Source: an uncultured Spirochaetaceae bacterium (lineage in GTDB: Bacteria > Spirochaetota > Spirochaetia > SZUA-6 > RPPD01). Taken from it: a stretch of 64,000 nucleotides of DNA. The first letter of the stretch is position 1; every line of letters begins with the position of its first letter. The translations under genes were made by a program, and so were the position numbers. This document shows positions 11,294 to 61,045 of the stretch, in pieces. The DNA is taken from positions 6,549-70,548 of the forward strand of contig CAZEPL010000003.1 in NCBI GenBank assembly GCA_964514135.1, read 5' to 3'. The notes below the pieces were generated by a model, which saw nothing but the letters and a program-made list of their open reading frames with translations, had not been told where the DNA came from and ran no database searches.

Positions 11294-11322
11294 GGATGTG
11301 ATAGCATTAACTTCATTTCAAT

Positions 11323-11781
11323 TTAATACATCATATTGATTACAATATGCTGCTCTAATTCCGAAACCACAATTGAGGCATCTTTAAAGGAGGGGGCACT
11401 CATAAAGCCCATGGCGTCATTGGAAAAACCATATCCTTCGAGTGGTATTCCAAAAAGGCCTTTGTCCATAGAGCCGTTGCTGTTTTCATCATGTAATAAA
11501 CACACGGCATAGGTGCCTGACTGGGCAAGATTAAAAACAGCCTGCGCTTTTCCATTCTTGATGGAGACTGCCGCTTTATCAATGGCTTTTTCGGCGTCTT
11601 CCGGGAAACCCGCTTCGCTGTTATACAGGGCAAGCAATACTTTTCCCTTGTCATTTCGCAGCCCCTTTATGGTTACATGCAGAGTGCTTGCTTCCTGCTC
11701 AGCCCAAAGCGTAACTAAAAAACATATGGTTATCAGTAAAATTATTATTCGTTTCACTATTACTCCTATCAGCGGTTTCAT
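11323..11781 (-). CDS. DUF2141 family protein (copy A)
   Basis: A signal peptide is followed by LHVTIKGLRNDKGKVLLALYNSEAGFPED...GIPLEGYGFSN, which is the DUF2141 signature. Confidence 0.7.
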   Translation of the reverse strand: MKPLIGVIVKRIIILLITICFLVTLWAEQEASTLHVTIKGLRNDKGKVLLALYNSEAGFPEDAEKAIDKAAVSIKNGKAQAVFNLAQSGTYAVCLLHDENSNGSMDKGLFGIPLEGYGFSNDAMGFMSAPSFKDASIVVSELEQHIVINMMY

Positions 11782-12160
11782 TTATTATTAAACACCGCTC
11801 TCTTTCTAAAATGTCACCTGTGCTCTTTTTTTTATTATACTTCATAATTATAACACTAGTTTACTTTGAATTCTTTCTTATCTTTACAGCACAGTATCTG
11901 AATAAGATCTCTGCTGCACTTGGTAACCGCCGGTACTGCTCCGCCGGGCTGCACCCATTGGCCGGTCATATAAAAACCTTTTAGCCCCGGCAGGGTCCTC
12001 TCATACTGCTTGCCGAAGTTTTCCGGTGTAAACAACCAACCCTCAAATGATCCCTGCCGGTTACCTGTATACTTATAGGTGGTCATGGGAGTTGCGATAT
12101 CTACCACTTCAATTTTAGCTTTAATCCCCGGATAACGCGTTTCCAGATAATCCACAATAT
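11323..12160 (-). repeat. Direct repeat copy A (~830 bp; DUF2141 gene plus oxidoreductase 3' fragment)
   Basis: This segment aligns base-for-base with 14789-15540 at roughly 90% identity by eye. Confidence 0.8.
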
Positions 12161-12700
12161 CTCTTTTTATACTCTCTTTTTCCTTATTATACGCAATGCG
12201 GTTTTTTGATAATTTTTACCAAAAAGAAAATGAAGTCGGGAATAACACAGTAACTAAACTCTTGCTACCGGTTTGTAAAGAAGCATAAAAAGCATAGTTC
12301 TTTACCCACAATCCATCAACATTAAAACTGCCGATTTTAATTGACTTAACAAGGAGGTGAATATCCGTATGCGTAACGGCCTTATATTCAGATCTCAGCC
12401 CCAAAGAAATCATCATCAAGGATCACCACAACTTTGCATTTTTGTAACGCTTGTTTATTTTTTTATTTATAAACTTCCCATCCAGCATATTATAAATAGT
12501 TGCATAACCGTCCGCAGCGCTTATTATAAGGTCCGCATGAGCCTGTATTCCGTTCTCCAGCTCAATTCCCACTGCCCGCCTTTTCTTGAGTAATATCTTA
12601 TTTACTTTACAGTTATAGTTAATTTTTGCTCCCATAGCTTTACATTTCGACTCTAATACCCTGGCAAGAAGTCTCGCCCAAGCCTTGCGGCTTGCCCGTT
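11856..12700 (-). pseudogene. Decayed phytoene-desaturase-family (CrtI-like) FAD oxidoreductase
   Basis: Three consecutive minus-strand ORF pieces are frameshifted: 12423-12700 (AMGAKINYNCKVNKILLKKRRAVGIELENG...ADLIISAADG), 12216-12419 and 11856-12155 (C-terminal YTGN...PGGAVP). The N-terminal Rossmann part is missing. Confidence 0.55.
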
Positions 12701-13016
12701 GTGTCACTATAACGGATTCACCCCCTGCTTCCGCCTGAGCGCGCGCGGCGCTACCGCCCCATCCGTACCACTTCTCCGCAGCTCTCAACTTGAGTGCCGG
12801 ACGCTTCTTCCACGTGCAGCGGCTTCTTGAGGAATAGACGCCATACCGCCGCACCACGTGCTTGCCCTTTGGCGGAATATGCAGCGTAAGCTGCGCGATG
12901 AAATCCAAGCCGTAAAAGTACCTGTCCTCGCCCCGAAGAAGTAGCAAATCACTTTTAAAGGATACCGTAAAACTGTCAAGGGCAAAAAATGAGGGTGAAG
13001 CTTTAAGGCAAATCAC
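12700..13016 (-). mobile_element. IS91-family transposase C-terminal remnant fused in-frame to the oxidoreductase fragment
   Basis: HIPPKGKHVVRRYGVYSSRSRC matches the IS91 C-terminal motif (HVLPKGFHRIRHYG). The DNA is locally GC-rich, around 60%, against an AT-rich background. Confidence 0.55.
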
Positions 13017-13063: not shown

Positions 13064-14698
13064 TTAAAATAATTTTCTATTTAATTTTTCCGCTATGGTT
13101 TTTCCTGTTAAGAATGCATTCGGCATACCTCCGCCGTATACAGTCTGATGACCTATGAAATAAAGACTTTTTATTTTATCATAATAATCAAAATATTTAC
13201 CAGGTAAAGTACCTTTTACAAAAGTTTTTTCTTTGTCCCATGTGAATCCGCAAGACGAACCGTCTGTATTCCCTGTATATTTTTCAATTGTAAATGGAGT
13301 GCCTAATTCGCATACTTCTATCTTTGATCTATTTTTGATTTCCGGAATTAATTTTTCCAGCACATCTAAAACTTGTTTTGTTATCATTTTTTTTATTTTT
13401 TCATACTCTTCGGTTTTATTTCCATTTTTAATTCCCCAGTTGTTATTCCAACCTTTTGGAGGAGAAGGCATTAGGATTAAAATATTGCTTTTATTTTCTG
13501 GAGCATGCCCGGGATTAATAAGGCATGAAGAAAACAATCCTAAACCTATATTTTTAAAATAATTTTTATCATTCAGCCTACTGGAATTTTTTATCATATA
13601 TTGAGAATAATATAAATGCTTGGCACCGTTAAAATATTTTCTAATTTTAATTCTTGAAACATTTAATCCTAAGTATAACGGAATATATGTTTCAGACATT
13701 TCCTGATTTTTTATTTTATCTAAAAATACTTCATCAATATATTCATCTCCTATAAGATTTAAAAAAACTTTTTTTAAATCCATAGCAGTTATTATATTTT
13801 TACCGTACAATTTTTTTATATTTGCTTTCTTAATTAATTCAACTCCAACAGCTTTATCATTTTCAATAATAATTTTTTTAACTTTCACAGAAGTTAATAA
13901 TTCTCCGCCAAAAGATAAATATTTTTCCTTCAATTTATTTGCTAATCCCTGGAATCCATTATATGGGTAATTTTCCATTTCAATTAAGCTTACCCATTCT
14001 GCAATAAAATAAAATAGATCAACGCCCTTATACCCCCAGTTTGAAAAAAAATCATAAGCTTCTCCATTTTCGTCCAGGTATTTTTTTAATACATCGACTG
14101 CTTTATATTTCTTGAGTTCCTTCATGACTTTCATACAGTTTTTCGGCATGATTTTTCCATAATCCATGAATTTCCTTATTTTTTTTAAACCTTTATATGA
14201 AAAAGGATTGGGGATTTTTGAAATCGCTGAATAAACATTTATTCCTTCTTCTATATGCTTATAAAAAGCAAGTATCTGATTTTTTTCTCTAACAAATAAA
14301 TCCGAAATATCTTCAAAGAATTCTTTTACAGTTCGTGGAGAAAAGTTAAAATCCTTAAAACTGAATGAACTCGAGTATTGCTTAAAATTAACTTCAGCAA
14401 TTAAATCCAATTCTTCCATAAAACCCTGGATAAAAGGAACCCCGACACTTATGACTCCGGAATCAAAAAAATAACCTTTCCTGGTGAACCCGCTTGCATG
14501 ACCACCTACTACATTGTGTTGTTCTAATATTATTACTTTTTTCTTTTTTTTAGCTAGAATGATAGCAGCGGTCAGTCCGCTTATCCCTCCGCCAATAATT
14601 AATGCTTCATATGACATATTTATCTCCTTTATAATAATTAAGATAGTTCCAGAATCACTTAGCTGTGTGATTCTTCCAAATAAACAATGCTCAATCAA
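13064..14698 (-). CDS. NAD(P)/FAD-dependent oxidoreductase, phytoene desaturase (CrtI/CrtD)-like family
   Basis: The N-terminal Rossmann motif is IIGGGISGLTAAIIL...ILEQHNVVGGHA. The C-terminus resembles the CrtI family. The DNA is very AT-rich. Confidence 0.75.
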   Translation of the reverse strand: MIEHCLFGRITQLSDSGTILIIIKEINMSYEALIIGGGISGLTAAIILAKKKKKVIILEQHNVVGGHASGFTRKGYFFDSGVISVGVPFIQGFMEELDLIAEVNFKQYSSSFSFKDFNFSPRTVKEFFEDISDLFVREKNQILAFYKHIEEGINVYSAISKIPNPFSYKGLKKIRKFMDYGKIMPKNCMKVMKELKKYKAVDVLKKYLDENGEAYDFFSNWGYKGVDLFYFIAEWVSLIEMENYPYNGFQGLANKLKEKYLSFGGELLTSVKVKKIIIENDKAVGVELIKKANIKKLYGKNIITAMDLKKVFLNLIGDEYIDEVFLDKIKNQEMSETYIPLYLGLNVSRIKIRKYFNGAKHLYYSQYMIKNSSRLNDKNYFKNIGLGLFSSCLINPGHAPENKSNILILMPSPPKGWNNNWGIKNGNKTEEYEKIKKMITKQVLDVLEKLIPEIKNRSKIEVCELGTPFTIEKYTGNTDGSSCGFTWDKEKTFVKGTLPGKYFDYYDKIKSLYFIGHQTVYGGGMPNAFLTGKTIAEKLNRKLF

Positions 14699-14788
14699 TA
14701 TTTTAACATTTTTATATAATGCATTATATGCTCAACACCTTTTTTATATACACCCGCATCTTAAGAGAGCGTGTTTAAAAATATTTTT

Positions 14789-15247
14789 TCAATATACTAT
14801 ATTAATTGTGATATAATAATCTGATCCTATAACCTCTATCGAGGCATCTTTAAAGGGGGGGGCGCTCATAAATCCTTTGGCATCATTAGAGAACCCATAC
14901 CCTTCCAGTGGAATACCAAAAAGGCCTTTATCCATGGAGCCGTTATTGTTTTCATCGTGTACTAAACACACCGCATAGGTACTGGAATGGTCAAGATTAA
15001 AAACAGCCTGCGCTTTGCCATTCTTGATGGACACTACCGCCGTATCAACGGCTTTTTCGGCGTCTTCCGGGAAACCCGCTTCACTGTTATACAGGGCAAG
15101 CAGTACTTTTCCCTTATCATTTCGCAGCCCCTCTATGGCTACATGTAGAGTGCATTCTTGTTTCTCAGCCCAAAGCGAGACTAAAAAACATATGGTTATC
15201 AGTAAAATTATTATTCGTTTCATTATTACTCCTTTTTGCGGTTTCAT
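14789..15247 (-). CDS. DUF2141 family protein (copy B, paralog)
   Basis: It is about 85% identical to copy A at protein level by eye. A C8/G8 homopolymer lies in the codons for APPF. Confidence 0.7.
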   Translation of the reverse strand: MKPQKGVIMKRIIILLITICFLVSLWAEKQECTLHVAIEGLRNDKGKVLLALYNSEAGFPEDAEKAVDTAVVSIKNGKAQAVFNLDHSSTYAVCLVHDENNNGSMDKGLFGIPLEGYGFSNDAKGFMSAPPFKDASIEVIGSDYYITINIVY

Positions 15248-15360
15248 TTATAAATAAAGCACCGCCTTATTTTCTAAAATGTCACCCGTTTTAATTTTTT
15301 TTATTATCCCTCATAATCATAATACTATTTTATTCTGAATTCTTTTTTATCTTTATGGCA

Positions 15361-15540
15361 CAGTAATTGAATAAGATCTCTGCTGCACTTGGCAACCGCC
15401 GGCACACCTCCCCCCGGCTGCACCCACTGTCCGGTCATATAAAAATCTTTTAGTCCCGGCAATCTTTTTTCATACTGCTTACCAAAGTTTTCCGGTGTAA
15501 ACAGCCAGCCCTCAAACGATCCCTGCCGGTTCTTTTATTA
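15361..15540 (-). pseudogene. CrtI-like oxidoreductase C-terminal remnant (second copy)
   Basis: The DNA is near-identical to 11880-12060 and encodes the ...PGGVPAVA...ILFNYCAIK-like C-terminal end. It is truncated upstream. Confidence 0.5.
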
Positions 15541-15544
15541 ATAA

Positions 15545-17344
15545 TTAATCTATTATACATATATCTGGTATTTTTTTTTCAATAAAGAATTTATAATTCG
15601 ATTGCGGATAGCCTAAGGCAAGAGCACCATGCACTTTATATTTTTTTTGAATCTGTAATAATTTTCGTAGCTTCTGTGATCTCTGGATTGCCGTTACAAT
15701 ATAGCCAGCATAACAAGTTCCAATACCCAGTGAGTGGGCAGCAAGCATGGCATTGGAAAGAGCAAGTTGCGCGTTTATTTCCGGAAGTCGAAGAGTTGGC
15801 CCGGAATAAAAAAGCAACAAACATCTGGCATTGTGCAGGAATGGATCACTGTGGTTGTTAAAATTAGATATAATAATTTCTAGTTCTTTTATAATCTTAC
15901 GCATCTCATTACCATATAAAAATACTGCAAAAAATTTATTTATTGGATTTTTTAATCCGGTATATAATTTTTTATAGTATGAAAAGATATTTTCTTTAAT
16001 GGCATTTAATACTTCGGGTTTTTGTATAACTATGTATTTTGTACTCTGTATATTATGTGCGCTGGGAGCAAGTTGAGCAGCACTGATTATATTATTAATA
16101 TCATTCTCTGAAAGGCTTTCTCCATTAAAACTACGAATAGATCGTCTGCTTTTTAAGAACTCAATAAAAATCTTGTATGAAAATAATACATTATTATGAA
16201 TAGGATGCATTTTCTTTTCTTTAAAAAAACTGTGGCTGATAGCATTTTTTGAGCAGAGAATCACGCAATGTCCACAGGAAATACATAGGTCTGTGTTTTT
16301 TAAAGAGGGTACTATACTATCATTATGTTTTTGAAAAACAGAAGCAGGACAATTGTTAAGGCAATTCATACAGGAATTACAGAGGTTTAGATTAATGGTA
16401 ATGGATAGATCATTCCTTGACTTTTTATACTTCGACTTCAGGGCCTGTAAGGAGGTATACTTTGGTTTAAAACCAAAATCTCTTTTTAATTTCTCATTGG
16501 AAGCAGTCCATCGATATTGCCAGTAGGAAAAGGATGAAACCGGAGTCTTGAATAAATTTAGCTTATAGAACAAATCACAGATTTTCATTAAAAAAGGAGT
16601 GAGTTTACTCCATTTGACTCTTCCTCCCGCAACTTGAGCCGCTTCACTTAAGTTTATCACATCATCAGGAACAAGGTTAAAAACACCTTTTATCTTATTC
16701 TTTTTTACGGCTGTATAATAGCACTCTATCATATCCTCTTCATGAAGAAACTGGTAAGCAGGATCAAATCCCTCAAACAGATAAACATTTTTCTTTTCTA
16801 AAACCCTTGAATAGTCCATGTCTACTTCCGGTCCATATAACTCACACATTCTAAAGATAATATAATCCATCTCAGGGTGAGATCTGAAAAAGGAAAGACA
16901 CAATTTCTCTACCTCAACTTTATCATGATAATAATAGTACTCTGGATTGCCCCTGTAAGGAGAGCTTTCCTTTAGAAAAAGTGGGTTATCAGGATTTGCC
17001 CCATACACAACAGTGCTGCTTGGAATAATTATCTTTTTAATTCCTGTATGTGACGAGGCATTTAAAATATTCTTTGTTCCTTCCACATTGATACTATAAG
17101 CCAATTTTTTATTCTTAAACGGCGGCATTAAAAAAGCCAGGTGAATAATTGTTTCAATATTCTCTTCTTTCAAAATTTCTTTAATCTTAAGGTTTCTAAC
17201 ATCAAATTGATAGAATTGATGGCCTAAAGGAAGAAGGACCTTTTTCATATCTATCCCTGTTATCTTTATATCAGGATCCTGTAATAATCGTGATAATAGC
17301 TTTTGGCCCATATACCCTGAAATACCCGTAATGGCCACATTCAT
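15545..17344 (-). CDS. Three-domain fusion: NAD-dependent epimerase/dehydratase-like + 2x[4Fe-4S] ferredoxin + nitroreductase
   Basis: The N-terminal Rossmann motif is VAITGISGYMGQ. The middle region has CNSCMNCLNNCP...CISCGHCVILC. The C-terminal nitroreductase-like region is RRSIRSF...APSAHNIQ. An AGGAGG RBS is present. Confidence 0.65.
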   Translation of the reverse strand: MNVAITGISGYMGQKLLSRLLQDPDIKITGIDMKKVLLPLGHQFYQFDVRNLKIKEILKEENIETIIHLAFLMPPFKNKKLAYSINVEGTKNILNASSHTGIKKIIIPSSTVVYGANPDNPLFLKESSPYRGNPEYYYYHDKVEVEKLCLSFFRSHPEMDYIIFRMCELYGPEVDMDYSRVLEKKNVYLFEGFDPAYQFLHEEDMIECYYTAVKKNKIKGVFNLVPDDVINLSEAAQVAGGRVKWSKLTPFLMKICDLFYKLNLFKTPVSSFSYWQYRWTASNEKLKRDFGFKPKYTSLQALKSKYKKSRNDLSITINLNLCNSCMNCLNNCPASVFQKHNDSIVPSLKNTDLCISCGHCVILCSKNAISHSFFKEKKMHPIHNNVLFSYKIFIEFLKSRRSIRSFNGESLSENDINNIISAAQLAPSAHNIQSTKYIVIQKPEVLNAIKENIFSYYKKLYTGLKNPINKFFAVFLYGNEMRKIIKELEIIISNFNNHSDPFLHNARCLLLFYSGPTLRLPEINAQLALSNAMLAAHSLGIGTCYAGYIVTAIQRSQKLRKLLQIQKKYKVHGALALGYPQSNYKFFIEKKIPDICIID

Positions 17345-17463
17345 ATAGATTCCTCCTTTTTGTGGAATAAAAACTGTTCTACATAACAGTTCTTTTGCGC
17401 ATAATAGGCGGCGGTTAATCCCGCAATACCTGCTCCGATTATGATAATCTTCTTTTCTTTCAC
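17341..17463 (-). pseudogene. Mini-ORF encoding only an FAD-binding Rossmann N-terminus (VKEKKIIIIGAGIAGLTAAYYA...), with its stop overlapping the start of the 599-aa gene (ATGA)
   Basis: I translated the minus strand by hand. A GTG start is followed by 38 codons. The GxGxxG fold N-terminus has no remaining body. This is either a gene remnant or a leader ORF. Confidence 0.4.
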
Positions 17464-17695
17464 AGCAGCCCCTCTCCTTATCAATAGTTTTGCTTTTTCA
17501 GCCGCATGCACTCTTTACACTTATCACATTATTACCCGGCGCATTTTGGCGGAATAGATTATTCATATTGAAATATAGTGTTAAAACTGCGCAATGTCGT
17601 CTTAAATATTATTTGAGACTTATTTTTTTGTTTATAAAAAAAAGATTTTAATTATTAATCATTATCCGGCTGCTGCTCTCTGGGGCTTAGTCGTT

Positions 17696-18775
17696 TTAAG
17701 AACTCTGCCGGCGGAATTCTTTGGGAACCATACCGGTTTTTTCTTTAAACACCCTGTTAAAAGTGGCTTTGGAATTAAAACCGGCAGCAAAAGCCAGTTC
17801 CAATATTGATTTTTTATTGTTTGCGAGATTTTGCAGCAATTTTTTTACCTCATTTAAGCGGTAGGTGTTTAAGAATTCGTTAAAGTTAATTTCTTCATGC
17901 TTACGAATGATCTGCGATAATCTTACCGGAGGGATAATACGAGTCAAAGCTGAGAGATCACCCAAGGTAAGTTCTATATCTATATATGCTTTTTGTTGTT
18001 CCATCACGGATTTGAGCCTTTTATATTCTTGATCCGTATCTTCATCGGTTAAAAACTGTTTAACCGGATATTTCTTATCGTAATCGATTTCATCAACAAA
18101 AATGACAGGATGTAATAATGAAAAGTAACCCAACAAATATATTACAAAGGCTACATTTAAGGCTATCATAGCATGCATGAGTTCTTTGAATGCAGCTGAG
18201 TCCACCAAGCTGTAAGCAAATATTATTAAGAGAACAGAAGCTATCCATGATAAAATCGATATAATAATAAGAGAAAAAATCCATATTTTACGCTCAAGTG
18301 TTATCATCCAATTATAAAATCCGTATCGCTTTTTAAAAAGGATAATGATGTTTGCCAGAGAAAATACTGAGGCCCAAACAAATGATGTTAATGCATAGTT
18401 ATAATACTGTGTAAATAGAGCGGCATCTGTTGTTAAGTATATTATAAAGGCAAAGAAAGAAATGGCGGCCGGGGAGAGATAAAATAAATATATTTTTTTA
18501 AATTCAAAATTGATATCGGTTAAAGACTTAATATAAAAATACGAGAGCGGTCCCAGCAAAAACAAATCAAACTCAATGGAAAAAAAGAAACAAATGTGTG
18601 TTGGAATAATTCCTGCTAAATAAAGGTATGTGTTGAGCAGCAAATAGACAAGTGCATAAATCCATAAGCTTAAAAATAAATTTGATTGGCTTTTTTTTCT
18701 TTTATTAAAGACGGCAATTCCAAGGAAAGTTCCATGTAAAGCTCCCAGCAGAATTAATATTCTTAAAATAAACAT
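17696..18775 (-). CDS. AraC-family transcriptional regulator with a multi-pass membrane N-terminal domain
   Basis: About six hydrophobic helices at the N-terminus are followed by a C-terminal AraC helix-turn-helix (LAFAAGFNSKATFNRVFKEKTGMVPKEFRR). Confidence 0.75.
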   Translation of the reverse strand: MFILRILILLGALHGTFLGIAVFNKRKKSQSNLFLSLWIYALVYLLLNTYLYLAGIIPTHICFFFSIEFDLFLLGPLSYFYIKSLTDINFEFKKIYLFYLSPAAISFFAFIIYLTTDAALFTQYYNYALTSFVWASVFSLANIIILFKKRYGFYNWMITLERKIWIFSLIIISILSWIASVLLIIFAYSLVDSAAFKELMHAMIALNVAFVIYLLGYFSLLHPVIFVDEIDYDKKYPVKQFLTDEDTDQEYKRLKSVMEQQKAYIDIELTLGDLSALTRIIPPVRLSQIIRKHEEINFNEFLNTYRLNEVKKLLQNLANNKKSILELAFAAGFNSKATFNRVFKEKTGMVPKEFRRQSS

Positions 18776-55264: not shown

Positions 55265-57418
55265 TTACCCCAAACCTAATAAGCTTCCTCCCTGATAAAC
55301 AATTAAAGCCATAATATATGCTAATGCAGTTGTATATATCATTTGGAACAGAACTTCTTTTAAACTTTTTGTCTCTTTATAAAACACTACCATTGCTGCA
55401 ATACAGGGAAAGTAAAGCAGAACAAAAATCATTAAAGAAAATGCTATTAAAGGAGAATATGCTATATCATTTCGTAATTTATCCCTTAATGTTTCTGATT
55501 CTTCATCAGCTTCTCCTACACTATAAACTGTGCCAAGTGTTGAAACTATTACTTCTTTGGCTGCAAATCCGGCAAATAGGCCTATCCCTAATCTCCAGTC
55601 AAACCCAAGAGGTTTAATTACAGGCTCTATTGCTTTTCCAATCCTTCCTGCAAAACTATATGACAAATCTTCTGTTGCCCTTTCATTTTCAAAATCTTCA
55701 ATCTTATTTTCTTTAATTTCTTCTATTTGATTACTTGTCTCTATTCCATTTATAAGCTTATAATAATCTTTTGAATATGAAGTAACTTTTGGAAAACTCA
55801 TTAATACCCACATAATAATTGAAACTGCAAGTATTATTGTACCGGCCTTTTTTAAATATAACTTTCCCTTTTCCCACATATGAATTAGAATACCTTTAAT
55901 AGTAGGAAGATGATAAGGCGGTAGTTCCATTACAAAAGGAGCAGACTCACCACGAAATCTAACCTTTGAAAATATTTTTGCCATAGCAACTGCAATAACT
56001 ATCCCTAAGATATATATTATAAATATAATATTCCCTGCAGCTTCTTTAGGAAAGAAAGCACCGGCAAAAAGTACATATACAGGCAATCTTGCTCCACAGC
56101 TCATAAATGTATTCACATGCATTGTAACCAGACGATCTCTTTTGCTTTCAAGTATTCGGCATCCCATGTATGCAGGTATTGTACAACCAAATCCTATAAG
56201 CATTGGAATAAATGATTTACCATGCAGTCCAAATTTATGCATGATCCTGTCCATAATAAACGCTGCTCTCGACATATATCCTGAATCTTCTAAGATAGCA
56301 ATTGCAATAAATAAAATTAGTATATTGGGAAGAAATACTAATACACCACCAACACCTCCTATTATCCCATCAACAATTAATGAATTGATTATGCCTTCAG
56401 GTATTACATTTCCTATAAGTTCTCCAAACCATCCAAAAAAGCTTTCTATCCACTCCATCGGTTTTTCTGCTAAAGTAAAAGTCATTTTAAATATAAGCCA
56501 CATGAAAAAAGCAAAGATGGGTAGTCCTAATATTCTATTGGTTAATATCTTATCTATTTTATCTGAAACATCTAATTTATGTCTTTCAAGCTGCCTGGCA
56601 GATTCTTTTACTACTCCTTTAATAAATCCATATCTCATGTCAACAATACGGCCTTCTACATCCTCACCAAAAATCATCTCCAAATGTTTTGTGCTTTCTT
56701 CGATTTGATATATTGCTTCTTGTTCAATAGAAGAGCCTTTGATATGCTCTAATTCTTCTTTGTCGTTTTCTAATAGCTTTATGCTAATATATCTGGCAGA
56801 TACTTTTTGCGTAAGACTTTTATCTTTTTTAATTATTTCTAACAATTTTTCTAATTCATTCTCTATTTCCTTTCCAAAATTTACTTGCACAGGCTTTATC
56901 TTTGACTCCCCTGTAGCAACCGTTATTATTTTCTCAAATAAAGCTTCAATTCCCTCTTTTTTATGGCCTACCGTAAAAACTATTTCACAGCCTATTAATC
57001 TAGAGAACAGATTTTCATCCAATCTTAAACCTTTTTTCTTGGCAATATCACTCATATTAAGACATAATATGAATGGTATACCCAATTCTGCCAATTGAGT
57101 AGCCAAATATAGATTTCTTTGAAGATTTGAAGAATCAATTATATCAACAACAACATCTGGTCTTTCTTCTATGAGAAATTTTCTTGCTACTACTTCATCA
57201 AGAGAATATGCTGTAAGGCTGTAAGTACCCGGAAGATCTACCACCTTTATTTTGTAATCCTTATAATTACATTTTCCTTCTTTTTTCTCCACAGTTACAC
57301 CTGGATAATTTCCTACATGCTGTCTCGCTCCGGTAAGAGCATTAAAAATAGTTGTTTTCCCTGAATTGGGATTACCAGCCAACGCTATTGTAATCTCGTT
57401 TTTATTGTTCTGACCCAA
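55265..57418 (-). CDS. feoB: Ferrous iron transporter B
   Basis: The G-domain is IALAGNPNSGKTTIFNALTG, followed by a polytopic membrane domain. The DNA is very AT-rich. Confidence 0.9.
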   Translation of the reverse strand: MGQNNKNEITIALAGNPNSGKTTIFNALTGARQHVGNYPGVTVEKKEGKCNYKDYKIKVVDLPGTYSLTAYSLDEVVARKFLIEERPDVVVDIIDSSNLQRNLYLATQLAELGIPFILCLNMSDIAKKKGLRLDENLFSRLIGCEIVFTVGHKKEGIEALFEKIITVATGESKIKPVQVNFGKEIENELEKLLEIIKKDKSLTQKVSARYISIKLLENDKEELEHIKGSSIEQEAIYQIEESTKHLEMIFGEDVEGRIVDMRYGFIKGVVKESARQLERHKLDVSDKIDKILTNRILGLPIFAFFMWLIFKMTFTLAEKPMEWIESFFGWFGELIGNVIPEGIINSLIVDGIIGGVGGVLVFLPNILILFIAIAILEDSGYMSRAAFIMDRIMHKFGLHGKSFIPMLIGFGCTIPAYMGCRILESKRDRLVTMHVNTFMSCGARLPVYVLFAGAFFPKEAAGNIIFIIYILGIVIAVAMAKIFSKVRFRGESAPFVMELPPYHLPTIKGILIHMWEKGKLYLKKAGTIILAVSIIMWVLMSFPKVTSYSKDYYKLINGIETSNQIEEIKENKIEDFENERATEDLSYSFAGRIGKAIEPVIKPLGFDWRLGIGLFAGFAAKEVIVSTLGTVYSVGEADEESETLRDKLRNDIAYSPLIAFSLMIFVLLYFPCIAAMVVFYKETKSLKEVLFQMIYTTALAYIMALIVYQGGSLLGLG

Positions 57419-57941: not shown

Positions 57942-58673
57942 CTAATTCACAACTTCAATAATTATTAATTCAGCTTCCTTTTTTCTTAAAGAAAGATGGT
58001 AGCCTTTAATATAAATATCAATTGGATCTCCAAGAGGGGCTACCTTTTCTACCATAATAACTTCATTAGGAATTAACCCCATACTTAAAAGCCTTCGCTT
58101 TATTTCTCTATCTCCTTCAATTCTTTTGATAATTCCTTTTTCGTTTTTTTCTAAGTTTGATAATTTTTTAATATTAGTTACTTCTAATTTCTTATCTATA
58201 TTTTCTTTTAAATATTTTGAAAAATTATCTATAAACTTACTATCAGCATCTATCTGCTTAATATATTTCATAAAACATACAATATTATTATATGTTTCTT
58301 CATGAATATAATGTTCTATATTACATGCGTCTTTCTTAGATATTTCTTCATCCGTTAGTAATATTTTTGAAAAAAAAGTAACAAGATTTTGGTGCTTTTC
58401 ATATATTCTTCTTGCTACGATTGTACCGGTTTTGGTTAATTCAATATGTTCAAATTTTTCATGTACAATTAGGTTCTTTTTTAATAAAACTTTTATTGCA
58501 TTGTTTATTGACGACACCTTATAGTTAAAAAATTCCATTAAATCTTTTACCCTAACGATTTTTTTCTTTAAGCTAATTATCCAGATAGCTTCCAGATAAT
58601 CTTCCATACTTTGTGATAATTCATACATATAGTCTCTCCTATAAAATATAGACTTACCTATATTTAATAGCAA
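57942..58673 (-). CDS. DtxR/MntR-family metal-dependent regulator with a C-terminal FeoA domain
   Basis: The N-terminal DtxR HTH is SQSMEDYLEAIW. The C-terminal FeoA-like domain is GLIPNEVIMVEKVAPLGDPIDIYIKGYHLSLRKKEA. Confidence 0.7.
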   Translation of the reverse strand: MLLNIGKSIFYRRDYMYELSQSMEDYLEAIWIISLKKKIVRVKDLMEFFNYKVSSINNAIKVLLKKNLIVHEKFEHIELTKTGTIVARRIYEKHQNLVTFFSKILLTDEEISKKDACNIEHYIHEETYNNIVCFMKYIKQIDADSKFIDNFSKYLKENIDKKLEVTNIKKLSNLEKNEKGIIKRIEGDREIKRRLLSMGLIPNEVIMVEKVAPLGDPIDIYIKGYHLSLRKKEAELIIIEVVN

Positions 58674-58899
58674 TTTCTATATTAGTCAAGTTAAATGCAC
58701 ACTTTTTTCTGCACCTGAAAGAATAAAATCTTTTCCATAGACTTCCTTAAACTTTTTTCTAGCAAGATTACCTGAACAATGATAAGGAGACACTTTCTCA
58801 ACACCCTAATCCTTTAATACATTGACAATTTCCATTATTTAACCTATATTCATCCAGCACAAATGAAAGCCTCCTAATATTAAATAAACATCTTTATAT

Positions 58900-59250
58900 T
58901 TTTATAGAATTTTTAACGATGTTTTTCGCATGAAAATAGTTACAGGTCTTGTACTCTCCTATCAGACAGCAGGAGATTTCGCCAGGTGGAATCCACATTA
59001 TCATTGACTTCTTCTAGAAGGTAGTTTTGATGCGGAAGGCAATTTTGAAGAACTGATAAATGAGAATTTTGCTAATAAATTACTATCCTGGAAGAATTCA
59101 GGATTTTCAATTGATAACTCTGTAAGAATCTTTAGCTCAATATATAGCAATGCGTCCCATATCTCTGGAGAAGATTAGATATGAACCCTTTCATGGAAAG
59201 GATTTTAGAGCACTCACCTTTGGGAACTATGCGCAATTAACTCTAAGGAG
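58900..59250 (+). mobile_element. IS91-family transposase remnant (HUH region) with an in-frame stop
   Basis: The sequence LSYQTAGDFARWNPHYH*LLLEGSFDAEGNF matches the IS91 HUH block. It is followed by the ~90-bp segment shared with 54975-55065. Confidence 0.5.
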
Positions 59251-59378: not shown

Positions 59379-60035
59379 TTAATCGGTACACAGGGATATA
59401 AGCTCTTTAATCGTGGGCGGCGTCCCCGGACCGCCGTGGACCGCTTGATAACGAATATATCTGCCGTCTGCCAGCGCAAACCAGTAATCCGCATGCCAGA
59501 AGTTACCGGCAAATCCCAACGCCTTTATTCTTATTCGTACCGCCTTGATTGAACGGCCTGAAATCTTTACTTTTTCTATGTTCATTTTAAGCGCTTCAAA
59601 CTCAAACAGAGCCAGGTCGTTGGGAGAGATTATCCAAAACTCCACCCGCTGTTTCATAGAAAGAGCAAACTTCTGTAAAGTAACCTCCGGGTACTGATAC
59701 CAGGGTCGGGAGTCTATAGTATATTCTTTGCTCACCGGCTGGCGCTTGAATGTACCTTGGAGCTTAATCGTATTTCCGTTGCGCTGCGCTTTAAAACTGT
59801 TGCCCTCCGCTGCCTGGGTGACTTCCCACACAAGCTGATTAGAGCTGCTGTCATAACTGTTCAGGCTGATTGGCGTTTTCAACACAAATCCCGCAGAGGT
59901 ATGTTCAAAAACAAGCACTTCGTATGCTATATTTTGGCCGGTGCTTACTTTGAATGTATACGATTCCTGGGCAGATACGGTATTGGCCATGGCTATTAAT
60001 ATAAGTAAAAGTGTAAATAACTCAAGATATTTCAT
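59379..60035 (-). CDS. Hypothetical secreted protein
   Basis: It has a signal peptide. The 5' end overlaps the upstream gene by 4 nt. Confidence 0.4.
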   Translation of the reverse strand: MKYLELFTLLLILIAMANTVSAQESYTFKVSTGQNIAYEVLVFEHTSAGFVLKTPISLNSYDSSSNQLVWEVTQAAEGNSFKAQRNGNTIKLQGTFKRQPVSKEYTIDSRPWYQYPEVTLQKFALSMKQRVEFWIISPNDLALFEFEALKMNIEKVKISGRSIKAVRIRIKALGFAGNFWHADYWFALADGRYIRYQAVHGGPGTPPTIKELISLCTD

Positions 60036-61045
60036 TTTTGTATCGGGTAATCCGGATTGGAAAGGTCATACTCGAAATTACCAAAATCAAGAGCATAGCC
60101 TGACAGTGTTTTACCATCAGCCGTAAGCTTAAATTTGCTCAAACTTCCCGATTGGCTATCTGCATGTTCGGCTGATGCGAATTTTGGAATAAGCTTTTCA
60201 GAGAGCTTATTATTGGAGACATTATATATATGAAAATGATAATAGCCTTTAATAACAACATATTTTAAATTTCTTTCATTATGGTGTAATACAATCTCAT
60301 ATGGAAAATCGGAAGAAACATTAACGGGAAGGAGTATTTTATTTATTACAGAAAAACCATTGCCATATTCTATTGTGACAAGCTGCCTTAAGCAAGGTAG
60401 ATTATTTTCATTATAGGCAGCAGAATCGGCTGCTATGCGAATGATAGTTTTTATTTCAGGAAAGACAACTTCCGAGCCAAGCCTGTACTTTGCTATTTTA
60501 AATCCTTTCTCAATAACAGGTAATACTATTGTTTGACCGGGCTTCAAAGGAACAGCAGGATTATGGTTATTAAGTTTTTGGATAATATCAATATACTCGT
60601 CTATTAAATAAGGATCAAAATCCGAAAAGGAAGCGGACATTAATTCCTGTACGATTTCGTGTAATGATGGGATACTCTTTCCCGTCGCATTCCGGGGCAC
60701 CGTATATTCCTGTGTTTTAATAATAACAGTGCATTCACCGCTTAAATCATACCTGTACCAACCTTCATCAGTTTTTACACCGCCTGTAATACCTCCTTTA
60801 AAGTCTACTTTTATTCCTACAGGAAAAATATGCAGAGCATAGGTTGAAAGCATTTCTCCATAAAACACACGAAAATTACCATAAACCGGCACAAAACGCA
60901 TAATACCTTGATCATTCCCTAAAATGCCTTTCTCACCGTTATCCGTTAATACAATTGTTCCTTGAAAAGCGACTGCCCCGCCGCTAAAGGCGTGTAAAGT
61001 GCTTAATGTAATAAAAATGACCACAGCAATAATTTTTTTAATCAT
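60032..61045 (-). CDS. Hypothetical secreted protein
   Basis: It has a signal peptide. No family is recognised. Confidence 0.4.
   Translation of the reverse strand: MIKKIIAVVIFITLSTLHAFSGGAVAFQGTIVLTDNGEKGILGNDQGIMRFVPVYGNFRVFYGEMLSTYALHIFPVGIKVDFKGGITGGVKTDEGWYRYDLSGECTVIIKTQEYTVPRNATGKSIPSLHEIVQELMSASFSDFDPYLIDEYIDIIQKLNNHNPAVPLKPGQTIVLPVIEKGFKIAKYRLGSEVVFPEIKTIIRIAADSAAYNENNLPCLRQLVTIEYGNGFSVINKILLPVNVSSDFPYEIVLHHNERNLKYVVIKGYYHFHIYNVSNNKLSEKLIPKFASAEHADSQSGSLSKFKLTADGKTLSGYALDFGNFEYDLSNPDYPIQK

Follow-up and report, generated by a model that had tools for sequence, protein, structure and literature searches.

Ferredoxin-nitroreductases (Fd-NR, in the following Fd-NTR), which are represented by NR1 and NR2 of Giardia lamblia and by proteins of anaerobic bacteria and archaea, carry two [4Fe-4S] clusters followed by a nitroreductase domain that binds flavin mononucleotide (FMN), and the physiological substrate of the family is unexplained (PMC7938412). 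The extended short-chain dehydrogenases/reductases (SDRs), including GalE, RmlB, 3-beta-HSD and OleD-like enzymes, are marked by a GxxGxxG motif, the residues Ser-Tyr-Lys, a C-terminal substrate-binding lobe and a common fold. In fatty-acid saturation by Lactobacillus plantarum, an SDR (CLA-DH) and an FMN enzyme of the nitroreductase fold (CLA-ER) reportedly act sequentially on one lipid. Here we describe a gene of an uncultured Spirochaetaceae bacterium in which an SDR and a ferredoxin-nitroreductase are joined in a single polypeptide, together with the operon to which it belongs. The gene is located in a 64,000-nt stretch of contig CAZEPL010000003.1, referred to in its entirety as the window, and is composed as follows:

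15545..17344, minus strand: fusion gene, 599 amino acids, extended SDR plus ferredoxin module of the 2x[4Fe-4S] type plus FMN-type nitroreductase (open reading frame (ORF), Pfam)
16430..17344, minus strand: SDR/epimerase-like domain, residues 1-305 (PF01370, GalE alignment, Foldseek, ratio of nonsynonymous to synonymous substitution rates (dN/dS))
16229..16411, minus strand: ferredoxin module, residues 312-372 (Fer4_9, Fer4 and Fer4_6 matches, dN/dS)
15548..16168, minus strand: nitroreductase-fold domain, residues 393-599, with R400-R401-S402-x-R404 and APSAHN (PF00881, per-residue model confidence (pLDDT), structural similarity (TM-score), dN/dS)

A domain search confirmed the three-domain fusion that had been claimed in a first-pass annotation of this stretch. 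The Pfam model Epimerase (PF01370) matches residues 3-223 (E = 1.1e-30, 107 bits against a gathering threshold of 20.9), Fer4-type models of 4Fe-4S dicluster domains match residues 315-370 (Fer4_9 with 33.5 against 27 bits), and Nitroreductase (PF00881) matches residues 397-579 (E = 4.7e-26, 92 against 23.5 bits); the two motifs quoted in that annotation, CNSCMNCLNNCP and CISCGHCVILC, are both present in the 599-residue protein. The Rossmann glycines of the SDR domain are arranged as G7-x-x-G10-x-x-G13, and its residues S110, Y138 and K142 line up with the catalytic triad S124, Y149 and K153 of Escherichia coli GalE. Within the iron-sulfur module, all eight cysteines of two CxxCxxCxxxC motifs are present (C322/325/328/332 and C354/357/360/364), and seven of the eight are invariant among 34 homologues, the exception being C325. 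Similarly, the arginines of the FMN-phosphate motif RRSxR (R400, R401 and R404) are invariant in the homologues, and S402 is nearly so. The protein is therefore predicted from its sequence to carry two [4Fe-4S] clusters and FMN.

Structural modeling with AlphaFold (AF2) resulted in pLDDT values of 85-97 for the ferredoxin-nitroreductase half and in lower, moderate values for the SDR half, for which the alignment was shallow. Comparison by Foldseek identified GalE and RmlB structures (3ehe, 6bi4, 8rdi) as the best matches of the N-terminal half, with a probability of 1.0 and a TM-score (target) of about 0.6, while the C-terminal half reached a TM-score of 0.79 to the FMN-bound uncharacterised nitroreductases 3pxv and 3ek3. 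A GxxGxxG motif, Ser-Tyr-Lys (YxxxK) and the two-lobed GalE/RmlB fold thus place the N-terminal half among the extended SDRs, and the Pfam score, the RRSxR motif and the fold place the C-terminal half in the nitroreductase superfamily. A narrower identity was found for neither. A GalE identity was rejected, as TIGR01179 scored 52.3 bits against an equivalog cut-off of 262.3, and the SDR half remained below the cut-off of every specific NCBIfam model; it also matches 3Beta_HSD and OleD-type models, and its subfamily is marked by the motifs AFLMPPFK and VYGA[NH]PDN. An NfsA/NfsB-type nitroreductase was likewise rejected, NF008033 reaching 48 bits where 223 would be required. More than one module of the protein is spanned neither by an NCBIfam model nor by a PDB chain, and its architecture lies outside any single known family. 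The full-length orthologues P0002 and P0003 have been named 'UDP-glucose 4-epimerase' by the Joint Genome Institute (JGI), a name that ignores two of the three domains and is unjustified, since the GalE equivalog model is missed so widely.

Hundreds of stand-alone Fd-NTR proteins of about 285 residues can be aligned over their full length with the last 290 residues of the fusion, and the order of the modules, two [4Fe-4S] clusters and then an FMN nitroreductase, is that of the Fd-NR enzymes. The likeness to Giardia NR1 and NR2 is one of domain order. Unlike the Fd-NR enzymes, the fusion has an entire extended SDR in front, and its identity to the stand-alone members is 30-39%. The N-terminal half, in turn, shares with GalE, RmlB, 3-beta-HSD and OleD-like enzymes the GxxGxxG motif, Ser-Tyr-Lys, the C-terminal substrate-binding lobe and the fold, but differs from extended SDRs of the GalE kind in that it fails the specific NCBIfam models and in that the neighbours of its subfamily are iron-sulfur and flavin enzymes. 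The CLA-DH/CLA-ER pair may serve as a working analogy for the mechanism proposed below, although those enzymes are separate proteins without iron-sulfur clusters, and the match of the fusion to PDB 4qlx ('Enone reductase CLA-ER') is weak (profile E 3.8e-9) and ranks well below those to many uncharacterised nitroreductases.

The fusion had been noted as unusual, and our searches showed it to be extremely rare. A word-indexed search of 5.8 billion proteins returned three full-length relatives, at 99%, 75% (from a sister species, L002) and 45% identity (L003), all of which share the architecture. In a phmmer search of 1.84 billion cluster representatives, one full-length match (P0003) was found among the best 150 matches, together with hundreds of stand-alone proteins corresponding to the N-terminal half (about 310 residues, at most 49% identity) and with stand-alone proteins corresponding to the C-terminal half (about 285 residues, 30-39% identity to the fusion). 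A scan of 185,579 species genomes (GTDB) with the single protein found no relative, and a rescan based on an alignment found one full-length locus, in a Spirochaetota metagenome-assembled genome (L004, 45% identity); L003 and L004 are 98% identical over the single neighbouring protein compared. Across some 5.8 billion proteins and 185,579 genomes, the full-length relatives are thus confined to three lineages, all apparently Spirochaetota, and a literature search for an architecture of SDR, iron-sulfur module and nitroreductase found nothing. The comparison of the window with L002 gave a dN/dS of 0.21 for the whole fusion (SDR 0.205, Fer4 0.12, nitroreductase 0.21), so that purifying selection acts on each of the three domains. 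Furthermore, four assemblies from other samples (L001, L172, L173, L174), which are 99.5-100% identical and jointly cover window positions 27345-12195, reproduce the locus, which argues against an assembly artefact. The protein is real, rare and probably functional, and it combines known families into a new domain architecture, of which no member has been described before.

A possible origin of the fusion is indicated by a metagenome contig (L086). In L086, a gene for a 308-residue epimerase, 48% identical to the N-terminal half, lies 4 nt upstream of a gene for an Fd-NTR (P0043), which is the best stand-alone match of the C-terminal half, and the split point of the pair matches the short linker of the fusion (residues 306-312). 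The 599-residue protein would be a Rosetta-stone fusion of such an adjacent gene pair, or the pair a fission product. The closest members of the SDR subfamily similarly adjoin iron-sulfur or flavin enzymes and not sugar-nucleotide genes: a stand-alone relative adjoins a gene with a flavin adenine dinucleotide (FAD)-Rossmann domain in L084, another overlaps the gene for a protein with CCxCCC and two [4Fe-4S] motifs (L171, 3232-4916), and a third overlaps a B12-radical-SAM gene (L177, 4529-6939) in a cluster that adds adh_short, lipid kinase, AIRS and UbiA prenyltransferase genes. The stand-alone relatives of L171 and L177 are 38-40% identical to the SDR half, and in P0109 an SDR is fused to the CCxCCC plus 2x[4Fe-4S] module that is separate in L171. 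More distant epimerase-only loci from GTDB (31-36% identity) have conserved neighbours that resemble aldolase, sugar kinase and 2-hydroxyacid dehydrogenase by eye only and were judged uninformative; a tblastn search of the C-terminal half against 80 of these loci found no Fd-NTR within 10 kb.

On the same strand, the fusion gene is preceded and followed by the following elements:

17696..18775, minus strand: AraC/XylS-type regulator with a polytopic N-terminal membrane domain (Pfam, hydropathy, synteny)
17572..17631, minus strand: promoter-like ACGACA-17-TATATT and the 36-nt element preceding it (alignment of window and L002)
~17363..17568, minus strand: 206-nt block, consisting of 105 nt of flavoenzyme-gene upstream region and the stump of that gene (pairwise alignment with L002)
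17341..17463, minus strand: mini-ORF of 40 codons, reading through into the leader of the fusion gene (sequence, weak FAD-Rossmann Pfam matches)
15325..15531, minus strand: 3' remnant of 68 codons and a stop codon in an intact frame, from a CrtI-family flavoenzyme gene (translation, match to copy B)
14789..15247, minus strand: DUF2141 copy A, encoding a secreted protein with a single hydrophobic segment at its N-terminus (PF09912 118 bits, hydropathy)

The membrane-anchored AraC regulator that had been proposed at 17696-18775 is confirmed by a C-terminal HTH_18 domain (residues 284-357, 60.9 bits against 33.6) and by about 6-7 hydrophobic segments within the first 230 residues of a Kyte-Doolittle scan. 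Its gene has a dN/dS of 0.13 and immediately precedes the fusion in L002, the sister species, as well. The 36-nt element between the two genes (window 17596-17631, minus strand; L002 7680-7715) is 94% identical, compared to about 75-80% for the coding regions, and holds an imperfect palindrome, GTCTCAAAT-AAT-ATTTAAGAC, upstream of the promoter-like site; the repeat tool detected no inverted repeat in it, and its one weak second match in the window is within chance. The element is a candidate operator for the regulator, and the membrane domain together with the conserved element suggests that induction might occur by a ligand that partitions into the membrane.

Between promoter and fusion gene lies the mini-ORF, which starts with GTG at 17463 behind a Shine-Dalgarno-like GGAGAGG and the TGA of which (17343-17341) overlaps the ATG of the fusion (17344-17342) as ATGA. 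The overlap had been noted before, with a length of 38 codons, whereas the frame comprises 40 sense codons. Its first 27 residues, VKEKKIIIIGAGIAGLTAAYYAQKNCY, resemble the N-termini of CrtI-family proteins, namely P0285 (VKKKIIIIGAGIAGLAAGCYAQINGY) and P0283, which were retrieved as homologues of the neighbouring flavoenzyme pseudogene. The 206-nt block that includes these codons is flanked by TATATT(TCA) on one side and by the AAGGAGGAAT ribosome-binding site (RBS) on the other and is absent at the same point in L002, where both of these flanks are conserved and the promoter is joined directly to the RBS of the fusion. We therefore take the mini-ORF, on the strength of these alignments, to be what is left of the 5' end of a CrtI-family flavoenzyme gene, a stump of about 27-34 codons, and not a regulatory peptide. 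Of the two explanations originally offered for it, a flavoenzyme stump or a leader peptide, the former is supported by the N-terminal match, by the absence of the block in L002 and by the presence of the 3' end of the gene downstream of the fusion. The ATGA overlap would then be accidental, a by-product of the site where the fragment landed. That the mini-ORF instead acts as a functional leader peptide or upstream ORF on the fusion by translational coupling appears very unlikely: the GTG start with its Shine-Dalgarno-like sequence, the intact 40-codon frame and the overlapping stop would be expected of such an element, but it is missing from the orthologous loci of L002, L003 and L004 (in the latter two the region upstream of the fusion is unrelated), it encodes the FAD-binding N-terminus typical of CrtI-family enzymes, and the fusion is equipped with a separate, strong Shine-Dalgarno sequence, AAGGAGG, located 7 nt before its start codon. 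The mini-ORF is identical in all assemblies of the window species, yet at 99.5-100% overall identity this agreement is uninformative with regard to constraint. An Rfam scan of 15200-17750 returned a sub-threshold small-RNA match only, inside coding sequence. An incidental upstream-ORF effect of the mini-ORF on the fusion may nevertheless occur.

The other end of the broken gene, the 3' remnant (NRQGSFEGW...KEFRIK*), begins 13 nt past the stop codon of the fusion and is followed by DUF2141 copy A, which is syntenic in L002. Stump and remnant, which are separated by the fusion gene, are too short for a CrtI polypeptide of about 460-520 residues and represent pseudogene fragments: the stump has the FAD-binding N-terminus of the CrtI/CrtISO/RetSat family, but as fragments the two are non-functional. 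Further downstream, the following elements are found:

13064..14698, minus strand: intact divergent CrtI-family (RetSat-like) flavoenzyme, 517 amino acids from ATG 14617 (GC content 0.29, GC content at third codon positions (GC3) 0.23)
12669..13016, minus strand: C-terminal fragment of an IS91-family (Y2_Tnp) transposase, 55% GC (PF04986, 28 bits against 20.9)
11856..12668, minus strand: pseudogene B of the CrtI flavoenzyme family, limited to the middle and C-terminal parts (frame translation)
11323..11781, minus strand: DUF2141 copy B, intact (within a 744-bp duplication)

The duplication comprises 14788-15531 (remnant and DUF2141 copy A) and 11322-12062 and has 85% nucleotide identity. Pseudogene B is interrupted by two in-frame stops (TGA 12423-12425 and TAA 12216-12218), and its 5' end is joined in frame to the IS91 fragment, which has no match in the plasmid collection. 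The remnant and the C-terminus of copy B are 85% identical with a dN/dS of 0.126 and a dS of 0.59; this low dN/dS indicates that both belonged to functioning genes up to a fairly recent date. Remnant and pseudogene B match proteins of the 'phytoene desaturase family' at 35-45% identity. No close intact orthologue of the broken flavoenzyme is present in the protein collection (the best homologues are 42-45% identical), the genomic context of the best one, P0200, was uninformative, and no solved relative of DUF2141 was found. The intact 517-residue flavoenzyme lies between the two DUF2141 copies and shares just 28% identity with pseudogene B; the best relative in the databases reaches 61%, and its relatives have been named retinol 13,14-reductase or phytoene dehydrogenase-like by JGI. 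It matches the models crtI_fam and carot_isom, with all CrtI-type scores below the equivalog cut-offs, so that the earlier description of the neighbouring gene as a CrtI-like oxidoreductase holds at the level of the family. The gene might have taken the place of the destroyed flavoenzyme as a xenologue.

In L002, the order is AraC, fusion and DUF2141 without a flavoenzyme gene. Between fusion and DUF2141, at L002 9598-9642, the last 8 codons of the flavoenzyme are recognizable in a decayed form, with the stop lost (TAG to TCG). The 148-nt spacer of L002 keeps this 8-codon relic and the spacer following it at a local alignment score of 48, compared to a mean of 21.5 +/- 2.8 and a maximum of 31 in 200 shuffles, and shows no homology above shuffles to the 105-nt leader of the stump. 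Taken together, these comparisons make it quite likely that the ancestral operon consisted of an AraC gene and, behind the promoter, the fusion, a CrtI-family flavoenzyme and DUF2141, and since the end points of the deletions differ, the flavoenzyme would have been lost independently in the window species and in L002. The 5' block may have been relocated by a duplication followed by deletions or by a template-switch event. Our confidence is high in what is said here of the structure and evolution of the fusion and of the stump.

A different course of events has to be considered, in which the fusion, from its RBS through its stop codon, was inserted as a cassette and replaced the middle of a single CrtI-family gene in a locus of AraC, promoter, CrtI and DUF2141, so that stump and remnant would be the ends of one interrupted gene, both of which the sister species deleted later on. 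Such an insertion would readily explain that N- and C-terminal fragments of the same family flank the coding sequence of the fusion at 17 nt and 13 nt, and it would agree with the 8-codon relic of the flavoenzyme 3' end in the sister species. However, compared to L002 the 206-nt block has the appearance of a clean single-site insertion, and the cassette would require a deletion in L002 that ends at exactly the same junction. In addition, copy B retains the middle part that is missing from copy A, and the divergence of remnant and copy B under purifying selection implies that the flavoenzyme beside DUF2141 was intact well after the split of window species and L002 as dated by DUF2141 (dS about 1.8) or AraC (1.30), an argument which is weakened by the fusion itself, as its dS of 0.73 between window and L002 is close to 0.59. 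Thus, a cassette insertion is less parsimonious than an ancestral operon and appears rather unlikely. It might also be proposed that the entire AT-rich block, including AraC, fusion and flavoenzymes, is a recently acquired genomic island, a horizontal origin having been suspected in the first-pass annotation. Its AT-richness was confirmed for the fusion (GC 0.333, GC3 0.30) and for AraC (GC 0.327), compared to about 0.42-0.45 in typical genes of the window; the GC3 values (0.30-0.33 for fusion and AraC, 0.23 for the 517-residue flavoenzyme) are similarly low against about 0.40-0.47, and the block contains the IS91 fragment. In contrast, the synteny of AraC, fusion and DUF2141 is maintained in L002 with proteins of 72-75% identity (dS 0.7-1.8), the L002 orthologues of fusion and AraC likewise have a lower GC than their neighbours, and stump, remnant and DUF2141 genes are of ordinary GC (0.40-0.45). 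Synteny and shared AT-richness in L002 characterize the core of AraC, fusion and DUF2141 as old and not recently imported, which renders a recent island improbable; only the 517-residue RetSat-like gene and the IS91 fragment with its 55% GC look like recent imports, and the suspicion of horizontal transfer stands for these two.

With regard to function, the locus may be pictured as follows. The fusion, comprising an extended SDR (GalE/3-beta-HSD-like, NAD(P)-binding) and a ferredoxin-nitroreductase that also occur as an adjacent gene pair, would be the first gene of an operon under the control of a membrane-embedded AraC-type regulator, which might sense a membrane-partitioning compound. Ancestrally, the operon would have included two more products, a CrtI-family flavoenzyme akin to phytoene desaturase and RetSat and a DUF2141 protein destined for secretion. 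The window organism has lost the flavoenzyme gene, of which 68 codons of the 3' part are left behind the fusion stop; the 5' part, together with 105 nt of upstream leader from the same gene, lies between promoter and RBS of the fusion and forms the mini-ORF. The duplicated copy of flavoenzyme and DUF2141 is cut short by the IS91 fragment and bears two nonsense codons, and a very AT-rich RetSat-like paralogue, apparently imported, lies between the two copies. Within the protein, the two iron-sulfur clusters might relay low-potential electrons to FMN for the reduction of a C=C bond, a quinone or a nitro group, while the SDR domain might interconvert alcohol and ketone on that molecule with NAD(P)(H). 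Our best guess, drawn from sequence features, is that a hydrophobic small molecule is tailored in two inducible redox steps. Lipid, isoprenoid and nitro-aromatic modification, the possibilities named in the first-pass annotation, are likewise guesses. The context leans slightly towards a substrate of isoprenoid, polyene or lipid-like nature, since relatives of the CrtI-family partners have been named retinol 13,14-reductase by JGI, since DUF2141 adjoins crtG in Sphingomonadales (PMC5989583), and since the SDR matches 3Beta_HSD/OleD models and has relatives near an FAD enzyme (L084) and in the UbiA cluster (L177). Taken as a whole, this account of a maintained two-enzyme fusion, an AraC-controlled operon, a destroyed flavoenzyme and a coupled redox mechanism is somewhat more likely than not, while any specific chemistry assigned to the fusion is doubtful.

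Alternatively, the fusion might be a quinone or nitro reductase that detoxifies xenobiotics, with the SDR adding a second step and the link to the CrtI family being incidental. Activity assays of Fd-NTR proteins showed reduction of menadione, tetracycline and nitro drugs, and the Giardia enzymes reduce quinones more readily than nitro compounds (PMC7938412). Fd-NTR modules elsewhere are joined to a GNAT acetyltransferase (P0052) or a methyltransferase (P0120) and occur in clusters of TetR, acyltransferase_3, Fd-NTR, GNAT and GNAT genes (L168-L170), which points to xenobiotic handling and suggests a general 'reduce, then modify' role of the family. AraC/XylS regulators, moreover, commonly respond to xenobiotics. 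On the other hand, the identity of the fusion to the stand-alone Fd-NTR family is low, no nitro- or quinone-specific NCBIfam model was reached, as with the NfsA-type model above, and the ancestral partners (CrtI family, DUF2141) as well as the nearest relatives of the SDR suggest lipid or isoprenoid chemistry. We consider detoxification rather unlikely. It might further be speculated that the protein is a self-sufficient, ferredoxin-driven SDR, in which electrons pass from the clusters to FMN and a hydride is transferred to the nicotinamide of the SDR or to the SDR product; the subfamily would then be wired to iron-sulfur partners instead of the free NAD(P)H pool. This idea is based on the repeated, independent pairing of the subfamily with iron-sulfur modules (fusion, L086, L171, P0109, L177), but appears improbable. 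Several observations weigh against the account that we favour. The geometry between the domains of the model is unreliable (predicted TM-score 0.51, N-terminal half from a shallow alignment). The split gene pair was seen in L086 alone, whereas 80 other Fd-NTR loci in the metagenomes have no SDR neighbour, although it is by comparison with these loci that the pairing of SDR and Fd-NTR is specific. The account offers no reason for the position of the 5' block in front of the fusion. Neither L002 nor the distant L004 has an intact CrtI-family gene beside the fusion, so that the flavoenzyme is dispensable for the fusion. No characterised close homologue fixes its substrate, and the Giardia Fd-nitroreductases act on quinones and nitro drugs, not on lipids (PMC7938412), in line with the xenobiotic contexts of other Fd-NTR modules.

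If the coupling of the two enzymes is real, it would link an uncharacterised SDR subfamily, the widespread ferredoxin-nitroreductases and the CrtI-like saturases together with DUF2141 in one pathway, and it would provide a single polypeptide in which such a coupling could be studied in vitro. The practical impact is modest, given an uncultured organism and a tiny family; the locus is, however, a clean case of gene remnants that mimic 'translationally coupled leader peptides' in raw sequence. The neighbours of the fusion in L004, a penicillin amidase, a methyltransferase and a histidine kinase, provided no functional clue. Other stretches of the window are strongly AT-rich, too (55268-57055, 58001-59000, 60035-61045 and 1445-2461, with GC3 values of 0.22-0.30 and a GC of 0.27 at 58-59 kb), so that low GC alone does not set this block apart.

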